64,000 nt of DNA from the NCBI GenBank assembly GCA_963816085.1, contig CAWFIX010000003.1:487167-551166 (forward strand). Direction: 5' to 3'. Both the position numbers and the translations under genes were made by a program. The stretch is from Candidatus Uhrbacteria bacterium. GTDB lineage: Bacteria; Patescibacteriota; Patescibacteriia; 2-12-FULL-60-25. Position 1 is the first letter of the stretch; each line of letters starts with the position of its first letter. This document shows, in pieces, positions 26,142 to 48,896 of the stretch. Under the pieces are notes generated by a model. That model made no database searches. It worked only from the letters and a program-made list of their open reading frames with translations, and was not told the origin of the DNA.

Positions 26142-26205
26142 TGTAGGGATAATCCCTTGCGGCGCCCCTCGCAGTCGAATGACGAAGTGGGGTGGTTATC
26201 CGTAC
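26142..26205 (+). mobile_element. REPIN type I (about 64 nt), left flank of RAYT-1
   Basis: tgtagggataatcccttgcggcgcccctcgcagtcgaatgacgaagtggggtggttatccgtac. Reverse complement of 26814-26877. Overlaps the RAYT stop codon. Confidence 0.85.
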
Positions 26206-26783
26206 TTATCACCTCCTTTTAACCATTGGTTTGGGTTATAAATTATATATTCTGCGATATTATCATAATCTTTCTCGTTATCAACGATTCGTTCGTAATA
26301 ATTTTTTTGCCATAATTTACCTGGAAACGGTAAGCATAATTTATTTTTAACCATTTTTATATATTCTCCGGTAGTTCTTGATTTAAAGGCTCCAACTACA
26401 TCTCCAAGCGATGTCGTATTTCTTACGTAGGGATAACCCTTGTGGTTATCCGTACTATTTCTATTGCTTAATATGCACGGGCGATCACAAGGATACGCCC
26501 CTACGACAGGTTGTAGACTTTTGTTACGCAGCTCGATTATCCCATGAATATGATTCGGCATAACAATGAATTCTTGTGGGATGACGATATCAAATTCTTT
26601 TTCGAGATTCTCCCAATTACGATAAAGCATGCACCCCGCCTCATTTAAAAACATGTAATGATTTTTTATTTCACCAAAATAATGCTTAAAATCATTTGTG
26701 CAAATTGTAATGAAATAAAAACCGGATTCTGAATAATCAAAACCTTTTAATCGTTTGGTTTTGCGATAGGGTAGTTTTTCCAT
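26196..26783 (-). CDS. HUH/Y1 transposase-like protein (IS200-like fold, REP-associated RAYT type), copy 1
   Basis: 'GFYFITICT' and HUH 'MPNHIHGII'. Conserved C-terminal region GDVVGAFKSRTTGEYIK, no catalytic Tyr assigned. Start at the Met at 26783. Flanked by inverted REPINs. Confidence 0.85.
   Translation of the reverse strand: MEKLPYRKTKRLKGFDYSESGFYFITICTNDFKHYFGEIKNHYMFLNEAGCMLYRNWENLEKEFDIVIPQEFIVMPNHIHGIIELRNKSLQPVVGAYPCDRPCILSNRNSTDNHKGYPYVRNTTSLGDVVGAFKSRTTGEYIKMVKNKLCLPFPGKLWQKNYYERIVDNEKDYDNIAEYIIYNPNQWLKGGDKYG
26425..26507. repeat. REP-like hairpins embedded in frame inside RAYT-1
   Basis: acgtagggataacccttgtggttatccgtac and gcacgggcgatcacaaggatacgcccctacgac. Translated as VVGAYPCDRPCILSNRNSTDNHKGYPYV. 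Confidence 0.8.
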
Positions 26784-26813
26784 GTTGTAATGATAGCATA
26801 GACAGTGTAGTAA

Positions 26814-26877
26814 GCACGGATAACCACCACACTTCACTCTCCGAGTTGCGAGTGGCACAGCAAGGGTTATCCCTACA
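26814..26877 (-). mobile_element. REPIN type I, right flank of RAYT-1 (inverted)
   Basis: gcacggataaccaccacacttcactctccgagttgcgagtggcacagcaagggttatccctaca. Confidence 0.85.
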
Positions 26878-41130: not shown

Positions 41131-41230
41131 TCGTAGGGGCGTATCCTTGTGATCGCCCGCACCATGGCTACAGCTGATTAAGCTACGCCTTTGGCGACAG
41201 AACTGGCGAACACGAGGTATCACCCCTACG
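41131..41230 (+). mobile_element. REPIN type II (about 100 nt, TCGTAGGGG...CCCCTACGA ends)
   Basis: Near-identical over about 100 nt to the sequence embedded in RAYT-2 (48388-48490). Sits between the two GC-rich genes. Confidence 0.85.
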
Positions 41231-48090: not shown

Positions 48091-48121
48091 CGTAGGGATA
48101 AACTTAGTGTTTATCCGTGCC
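48091..48121. repeat. REP hairpin (GGATAAAC type), left flank of RAYT-2
   Basis: cgtagggataaacttagtgtttatccgtgcc. Confidence 0.75.
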
Positions 48122-48128
48122 AAATCAA

Positions 48129-48788
48129 CTATTTTAATTCCTTATTATTTTCATCCTTATCCCACTGCATCGGATTGTAGCTTATATACTCCGAGATTTT
48201 CTCATAATCTTCTTCATCACGGATAACATGCTCATAATAGTTTCTTTGCCAAAGCTTTCCTTGGAAAGGCTTCCATGAATTCTTTTTAACGTTCTTAATA
48301 TACTCAACTGAAGTTCTTGATTTAAAAGCCTGCACGATTCTTCCAAGCGTGTCTTGTTTTGTACCGCTATGTCTACTTGTTTCAACTCGTAGGGGCGTAT
48401 CCTTGTGATCGCCCTCACTAAGGCTACAGCTAATCAAGTTACGCCTTTGGCGACAGAACGGGCGAACACTATGTTCGCGCCCTACGATCGAAAACTGGCG
48501 AATGCTAGGCATCGTCCCTACGCGGTCATTTTGAATTTCGATAATCCCGTGAATGTGATTTGGCATTACGATAAATTCATCCAGAATAATTTGAGGAAAT
48601 TGTTTTTCTAGATTCCGCCATTCGGCATAAAGCATGCAACCGGCATGATTTAATATTATCTTGTGATTTTGAATTTTGCCAAAATAATTTTCGGAGTCAT
48701 TTGTGCAGATAGTGATAAAATAAGAGCCGGAATCGGCGTAATCAAAACCAGGGATACGAATTGATTGTCGGTTTGGCAATTTATTCAT
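48129..48788 (-). CDS. HUH/Y1 transposase-like protein (RAYT type), copy 2, with an approximately 100-nt REPIN read through in frame
   Basis: 'GSYFITICT' and 'MPNHIHGII'. Conserved C-terminal region GRIVQAFKSRTSVEYIK, no catalytic Tyr assigned. The central 'VGREHSVRPFCRQRRNLISCSLSEGDHKDTPLRVE' is coded by REP DNA. Confidence 0.85.
   Translation of the reverse strand: MNKLPNRQSIRIPGFDYADSGSYFITICTNDSENYFGKIQNHKIILNHAGCMLYAEWRNLEKQFPQIILDEFIVMPNHIHGIIEIQNDRVGTMPSIRQFSIVGREHSVRPFCRQRRNLISCSLSEGDHKDTPLRVETSRHSGTKQDTLGRIVQAFKSRTSVEYIKNVKKNSWKPFQGKLWQRNYYEHVIRDEEDYEKISEYISYNPMQWDKDENNKELK
48388..48533. mobile_element. REPIN type II copy embedded inside the RAYT-2 ORF
   Basis: tcgtaggggcgtatccttgtgatcgccctcactaaggctacagctaatcaagttacgcctttggcgacagaacgggcgaacactatgttcgcgccctacga, aligning with 41131-41230. 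Confidence 0.85.
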
Positions 48789-48826
48789 GTATCAATAAGA
48801 TAATGATTGTGATGGTGATTATTTAG

Positions 48827-48896
48827 CGAAGGCGAACACCACAAGGTCGTCTGGTTTATTAGGTGCGGGCGATCACAAGGATGCGCCCCTACGAGA
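48827..48896 (-). mobile_element. REPIN type II-related element, right flank of RAYT-2 (inverted)
   Basis: The reverse complement starts ctcgtaggggcgcatccttgtgatcgcccgcacc. Confidence 0.75.

Follow-up and report, generated by a model that had tools for sequence, protein, structure and literature searches.

In-frame REP hairpins in a variable loop of two paralogous RAYT genes from a Candidatus Uhrbacteria genome

The 64,000-nt stretch of DNA analyzed here (the window; CAWFIX010000003.1, positions 487,167-551,166) belongs to a 1.42-Mb Candidatus Uhrbacteria genome and contains two paralogous Y1/HUH transposase genes, RAYT1 and RAYT2, both encoded on the minus strand. RAYT2 (48129..48788, minus strand) is an intact ORF of the subclass 2.4 type that encodes 219 aa and carries the motifs NHIHGII (HUH), WQRNYY, and YISYNP (catalytic Tyr). 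RAYT1 was listed as an ORF at 26196..26858 with a GTG start at 26858, but its start is most likely the ATG at 26783, which gives a coding sequence at 26196..26783 (minus strand) and a protein of 195 aa, the same length as the database protein P0005. The Tyr motif of RAYT1 reads YIIYNP. The two proteins are 51-54% identical, and the genes share 308 of 468 nucleotide positions (66%) outside the loop that is the subject of this work. Both proteins exceed the cut-off of 23 for Pfam PF01797 (Y1_Tnp), with 24.6 bits for RAYT2 and 27.2 bits for RAYT1. The top family for both is NCBIfam NF047646 (REP-associated tyrosine transposase), which scores far above IS200 (21 and 16 bits); the scores of 74.4 and 59.4 bits nevertheless fall under the family cut-off of 80, and the match is broken into two parts by the loop insert. 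All catalytic motifs are present in the two intact ORFs. Residues H78, H80, W180, Y201, and P206 are invariant columns in a 41-sequence alignment, and with the HUH, WQ, and Tyr columns conserved in this way the RAYT genes look functional as judged from sequence.

An AlphaFold2 model calculated with the same 41-sequence alignment has a core with pLDDT > 90 and a loop at approximately residues 90-140 with block means of 45-50 and no secondary structure, and the RAYT2 loop is predicted from this model to be disordered. Foldseek matched the model to 2xma, 2vih, 2f4f, and 4er8_A at a probability of 1.00, a set that includes ISDra2 TnpA, IS608 TnpA, and TnpA-REP (4er8_A). The last of these was also recovered by a profile search (E-value 3.8e-6), with coverage limited to the C-terminal motif. 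A third, distant RAYT-like gene lies outside the window (G000 C3:393348-393950). It is ~30% identical, has the motif MPDHFHAI, and holds in the same loop two 'double-foot' hairpins of different sequence (GTAGAGACGTCCCCGCTGGGGCGTCTAC), with ~6 similar hairpins elsewhere in the genome.

The earlier note on this DNA, made from the sequence alone, had described a REPIN of about 100 nt read through in frame within RAYT2, and this description was borne out. The element is 97 nt long (48389..48485), runs from GTAG to CTAC, and is free of stop codons in one of its six frames, which is the frame used by the gene. Its two arms, REP-A (48389-48414) and REP-C (~48456-48485), stand in opposite orientations. 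The REPIN is translated as IVGREHSVRP...GDHKDTPLR, and the ORF contains the peptide VGREHSVRPFCRQRRNLISCSLSEGDHKDTPLRVE. As single-stranded DNA, the element folds at -23 kcal/mol (z = -3.85). A degenerate third REP (GTAGGGACGATGCCTAGCATTCGCC; ~48492..48521, minus strand) sits beside it in the loop as a GTAGGG-tagged hairpin (C3:535687) that reads RVGTMPSIRQF and looks like an older, decayed insertion. The presence of a decayed REP beside an intact REPIN points to successive insertions. RAYT1 was likewise said to carry REP hairpins at the equivalent position, and a 78-nt REPIN (26427..26504) was indeed found in the same loop, after the HUH strand, with the arms REP-B (26427-26452) and REP-A (~26479-26504). 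On the gene strand it reads VVGAYPCDRP...DNHKGYPYV (peptide VVGAYPCDRPCILSNRNSTDNHKGYPYV), and its single-stranded fold has z = -3.04. The sizes of about 27 and 55 aa that had been given for the two inserts need one correction. The inserts do occupy the same loop, but 55 aa is the length of the whole RAYT2 loop, which consists of one degenerate REP and the 97-nt REPIN encoding ~35 aa.

REP hairpins also stand on either side of both genes. A B-like REP (GTAGGGATAAACTTAGTGTTTATCC; 48092..48121, plus strand) lies directly 3′ of the RAYT2 stop codon, and a REP-A (48863..48892, minus strand) lies upstream of the gene. Downstream of RAYT1 is a 'long REP-B' (26142..26205, plus strand), a REP-B hairpin with an insert of ~33 nt in the hairpin loop (CGGCGCCCCTCGCAGTCGAATGACGAAGTGGGG), and its inverted partner is found upstream (26811..26877, minus strand). 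With inverted, GTAG-tagged REPs on both sides, each gene qualifies as a 'REPtron'. At ~6 other sites, CTTGCGGCGCC(A/C)CTCG follows a chimeric REP head. The upstream REP-A of RAYT2 and the internal REP-A arm form a 33-nt inverted repeat with 94% complementarity. A pairing of this kind, in which the flanking REP upstream of the gene is inverted relative to a distal internal arm of its own sub-type, was seen in all four loci examined: RAYT2 (48386-48418 / 48863-48895), RAYT1 (26427-26456 / 26811-26876), and the related loci L082 and L084. Between the two members of each pair lie the promoter and the N-terminal half of the gene with the HUH motif, and the pairs could have arisen through local copying or could provide a site for inversion or cruciform formation.

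The hairpins belong to a dispersed family. A census by ViennaRNA folding of every GTAGGG-tagged site in the genome yielded ~70 genuine GTAG-tagged REP hairpins, each an imperfect, GC-rich palindrome with a 5′ GT[AG]G tag at its base; they occur in many copies and are mostly intergenic, as expected of REPs and REPINs. They have in common the tag (T/C)CGTAGGG, the loop C(C)TTGTG, and the tail CCGTGC, and their stems fall into sub-families set apart by compensatory changes. Among these are stem A (GGGGCG(T)ATC/GATCGCCC), stem B (GGGATAAC/GTTATCC), and stem C (GGGCGCGAAC/GTTCGCCC). Most of the REPs occur two by two in inverted orientation, and the resulting 25 REPINs are 70-129 nt long and have their tags at the outer ends. 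The 22-mer core of REP-A, GGGCGTATCCTTGTGATCGCCC, occurs four times in the window versus zero times in 100 shuffles; with up to 4 mismatches allowed, the 1.42-Mb genome has 22 occurrences. A free-standing intergenic REPIN in the window (41133..41229; z = -5.16 for its single-stranded fold) is ~88% identical to the RAYT2 insert. The segments 48388-48490 and 41131-41230 had been called almost identical, which is a fair description of their 88 identical positions of ~100 (BLAST: 91.7% over the first 84 nt) but slightly generous since the second arm differs.

Only three of the 25 REPINs lie within long ORFs: those of RAYT1, RAYT2, and a 583-aa protein. The last is a multi-pass membrane protein encoded outside the window (G000 C3:884945-886696) with an in-frame REPIN at C3:886099-886195 that reads GVGREPCVRPVLTPTAELNNSNQSTGDHKDTPLRC (GVGREPCVRP...GDHKDTPLRC) in the same reading frame as that of RAYT2. 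The RAYT coding sequence amounts to 1.25 kb, or ~0.09% of the genome, and yet it holds 2 of the ~25 REPINs where ~0.02 would be expected by our own length-based estimate. Finding two REPINs at the same loop in so small a fraction of the genome is far from chance.

The relationship between the internal and dispersed copies bears on the suggestion in the earlier note that the loop is the source of the REP sequence, so that the dispersed copies would descend from a RAYT-internal master. The internal hairpin arms, although the two genes are only 66% identical in nucleotides outside the loop, are identical at 27-28 of 28 positions to REP copies dispersed in the genome and equal the most common variants, as such a descent would have it, and gene-internal REPs are also present in genomes that lack dispersed copies (discussed below). 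The full elements tell against it. The best copy elsewhere in the genome matches the RAYT2 REPIN at 97% over 72 nt and the RAYT1 REPIN at 86% over 79 nt, and a BLAST search of the genome returned no identical full-length copy of either. The internal REPINs mix arm types (A+C in RAYT2, A+B in RAYT1) just as intergenic REPINs combine different types, and the content of the loop differs between orthologues. With identical full-length copies absent elsewhere, the internal REPIN is ruled out as an obvious master copy, and the source reading, which gained no positive support, is in our view very unlikely.

Homologues were examined to see how far the arrangement extends. A protein search found 3,615 relatives of 163-291 aa in many phyla, and in the 41-sequence alignment the length differences are confined almost wholly to this loop, which lies between strand β3 (HUH motif) and helix αC (AFKSRT region) and ranges in length from 20 to 93 aa among 90 genes. 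The peptides RGEPCVRP...GEHKVRPY, GDHKDRPY, and VGA...APT recur in the loops of this alignment, and they are translated GTAG-tagged hairpins: GTA GGG GCx gives VGA, xGT AGG GGC gives xRG, and the reverse tag CCCCTAC gives PY, APT, or PL. A survey at the DNA level of 88 non-redundant genes from many phyla showed that 75 (85%) have at least one GTAGG/CCTAC tag in the loop. A fold of -8 kcal/mol or better was obtained for 79% of the tagged 28-mers versus 8% of control segments drawn from those genes. None of the 88 homologues has the forward tag in the frame that would read TAG as a codon. A 14-mer sharing test was put to qualitative use only, as its control is inflated by the N-spacer (~7 per locus). 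The tags themselves are scattered: the first falls 2-25 aa past the HUH strand, and 5-30 aa separate the last from the FKS helix. This spread rules out one fixed insertion site. Approximately 15% of the 88 homologues are untagged, and P0009 (163 aa) is an example of a close homologue without an insert.

The recurrence of GDHKDRPY-like peptides in the loops of distant homologues could be taken to mean that the protein sequence is what is conserved and that its resemblance to REP DNA is coincidental. The peptides, however, covary exactly with the DNA stems: the stem is GAAC/GTTC for GEHKVRPY, GATC/GATC for GDHKDRPY, and GAAT/ATTC for GEYKIRPY. Homologues that share GEHKVRPY or GDHKDRPY were found to carry related hairpins with compensatory stems, not the same peptide alongside unrelated REPs. 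Parsing gave 110 units with 38 different inner stems, 98 of them fully complementary versus a mean of 12.6 upon permutation of the partners; the units were pre-selected for folding, and the figures therefore describe stem diversity with pairing and are not an unbiased covariation test. This stem-driven covariation of the peptides and the match to the genome's own dispersed REPs, seen in 8 of 12 other genomes and, in the present one, with 28-nt exact matches to intergenic copies, rule out coincidental peptide conservation. That the genes might instead be pseudogenes or products of mis-assembly is contradicted by the intact ORFs with their catalytic motifs and by the same gene architecture in independent assemblies. 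Taken together, these artifactual explanations are barely credible.

Several side observations came out of the same survey. Half-REPs are amplified in tandem in the loops of several homologues (L048:10181-10423, L043:10235-10339, L028, L011, and L039), either as GGCGAACACGATAAAAATACAAC in four copies or as GGTCCCTGTGCCGTCCCGAAA (KGPCAVP) in three copies after an initial related copy. The tandems yield peptide repeats such as GEHDKNTT and KGPCAVP and probably correspond to what Quentin et al. show as 'short repeats' in their Fig. S6. The distribution of the family is patchy, as it is absent from 39 of 61 relatives. One relative of the same genus has a RAYT1-like gene (G011:C6:24366-24818, L087) that is 69% identical and contains an in-frame TGA, which makes it probably a pseudogene.

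Whether the loop always contains the REP of its own genome was addressed by using the RAYT loop DNA of each of 12 other genomes as the query against that genome. The answer was yes for eight of them, where the loop hairpin has from 13 to > 90 dispersed matches in the same genome; these include a Legionella MAG, Dysgonomonas, two Chloroflexota, Binatia, Latescibacterota, and Persicitalea. The other four have few matches, mostly in the gene and its flanks: six in G002 (locus L005), one in G069 (L048), two in G071 (L035), and five in G072 (L040). A REP that is almost confined to the RAYT gene and its surroundings in these four genomes indicates that the internal copy can persist without a dispersed population.

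Comparison of orthologues showed directly that the content of the loop changes. The RAYT1 orthologue at L084 (genome G026) is syntenic, with 85% protein identity, a neighboring Wzy-like gene at 86%, and the same sigma / anti-sigma / 1271-aa gene context. Its loop contains a single 'long REP-B' (L084:7520-7590) versus the REP-A + REP-B REPIN of RAYT1, and such a difference between close orthologues, at one and the same position, signifies turnover. A more distant homologue, P0004 (65% identical to RAYT1 by BLASTP, 68% in a MAFFT alignment), retains the VGAYPCDRP arm and has a second arm different from that of RAYT1. Occupancy of the site is thus maintained even as the element in it changes. At the mreB locus (48092-48892 versus L082:1290-2010), a close relative has an MreB that is 99% identical and a next gene (732 aa) that is 81% identical, with a RAYT between inverted flanking REPs that is only 58% identical and lies in the opposite orientation. 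This arrangement suggests that whole REPtrons have been inverted or replaced at a fixed locus.

Of the three readings put forward in the earlier note, repeated insertion of the enzyme's own substrate into a permissive loop is the best supported, on account of the orthologue differences, the layering of elements in RAYT2, and the varied tags. We consider it probable that the internal hairpins reflect recurrent REP insertion and decay in this loop, with the encoded peptide as a passenger. In such a mechanism, RAYT would act preferentially on DNA near its own gene, a cis preference that we assume, and REPs would for that reason come to flank the gene and land in it repeatedly. Selection would spare only those insertions that are in frame and free of stop codons in this one tolerant loop, and the inserted REPs would later decay, be deleted, be amplified in tandem, or be replaced. 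The REP-encoded peptide would then have no role as a functional domain. Insertion and decay are favored by the different loop REPs of orthologues and the decayed REP beside the intact REPIN of RAYT2, by the varied positions of the GTAG tags and the predicted disorder of the loop, and by the sister REPIN that is read in frame in an unrelated membrane-protein gene.

Some observations fit less comfortably with a passenger. The extreme enrichment (2 of the ~25 REPINs, and 85% of loops occupied) could be due to selection for the hairpin and not to a targeting bias, the arms match the commonest REP variants at 27-28 of 28 positions, unlike what slow decay would leave, and 4 of 12 genomes keep an internal copy without a dispersed population to re-seed it. 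High occupancy, arm identity, and persistence without dispersed copies keep alive, as a distinctly minor prospect, a role as a cis-regulatory element or 'seed copy'. The internal REP or REPIN would in that case be under selection as a functional cis element, either a self-limiting mRNA/ssDNA hairpin or a protected 'seed' copy. Consistent with this proposal, the loop is occupied across phyla, the internal arms match the dominant variants, the REP is found only in or beside the RAYT gene in G069, G071, and G072, and in all four loci examined the distal internal arm is matched by an inverted upstream REP of its own type. A cis element of this kind is harder to reconcile with loop content that differs between 85%-identical orthologues, with the untagged members and the insert-free P0009, and with the variable tag positions, and we regard selection for such an element as unlikely. 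A shade less likely is the more specific version in which the internal REP is a selected part of the REPtron, a master or seed copy under protection that may double as an autoregulatory hairpin. If this version were true, the enzyme and its substrate would travel together in a unit the size of one gene, by inheritance or by horizontal transfer, and the internal REP could start a REP population afresh in another genome. It would also account for the 85% occupancy, the arms of the dominant variant, and the confinement of the REP to the RAYT gene in some genomes.

Whichever reading is followed, these two paralogues provide a case from Patescibacteria of an oddity that has been published but little studied, namely a domesticated transposase whose gene carries its own presumed substrate in frame. 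Turnover with constant occupancy and hairpins confined to the gene sharpen the choice between a passenger and a functional cis element, a question that is now testable. The loop hairpins also have consequences for annotation. They explain the length range of 163-291 aa and the scores below the family-model cut-off, as well as the recurrence across phyla of low-complexity peptides such as VGA...APT and RGEPCVRP...GEHKVRPY.

In terms of known systems, an in-frame REP in a RAYT gene has been on record since 2018. Quentin, Siguier, Chandler, and Fichant (BMC Genomics 19:475; PMC6006769) established gene-internal REPs as the hallmark of TnpA-REP subclass 2.4, which is RAYT Group 4 of Bertels, Gallie, and Rainey 2017 (PMC5581495). 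They described "a remarkable and unique feature" (Fig. S10) and modeled the region as a peripheral extension. Both genes of the window fit subclass 2.4, an assignment based on motifs and architecture. They share with it the motifs NH[IFV]H and WQ (Table 1 of PMC6006769), a variable insertion between β3 and αC, and a patchy spread over many phyla. The Tyr motif YI(S/I)YNP matches the YIxNNP of the subclass at five of six positions. The host here is a 1.4-Mb Patescibacteria, whereas the published study emphasizes Cyanobacteria and Bacteroidetes, and unlike the cases described there, one small genome holds two paralogues and a third distant one. The comparison of orthologues also shows turnover directly, in contrast to the published account. 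The texts of Nunvar 2010, Bertels & Rainey 2011, and Corneloup 2021 make no mention of RAYT-internal REPs. What is new in the present analysis is the tag occupancy of 85% among 88 homologues, the match to the genome's own REP in 8 of 12 genomes, the turnover between orthologues, and the predicted disorder of the loop.

The TnpA-REP of E. coli (4ER8; Ton-Hoang 2012, PMC3333891; Messing 2012, PMC3479197) resembles these proteins in its Y1 HUH fold and in the inverted GTAG-tagged REPs that flank its gene, and its substrate is a bulged REP hairpin. It differs in belonging to subclass 2.2 / Group 2, in having a short β3-αC loop (TLPEGDDDFSS), and in having no gene-internal REP, and its sequence similarity to the two RAYTs is weak. 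Intragenic REPs have been reported by Di Nocera et al. 2013 (PMC3733652), but outside of RAYT genes. The Rickettsia palindromic elements (Ogata et al. 2000, as relayed in PMC3733652) offer another parallel. There, as here, in-frame palindromes occupy tolerant protein loops, often as dimers encoding 20-30 aa. The hosts in those cases are unrelated housekeeping genes; in the Uhrbacteria genome, the host is the transposase thought to mobilize the repeat, and unlike the cases recounted there, the site is one and the same loop throughout a whole protein family.
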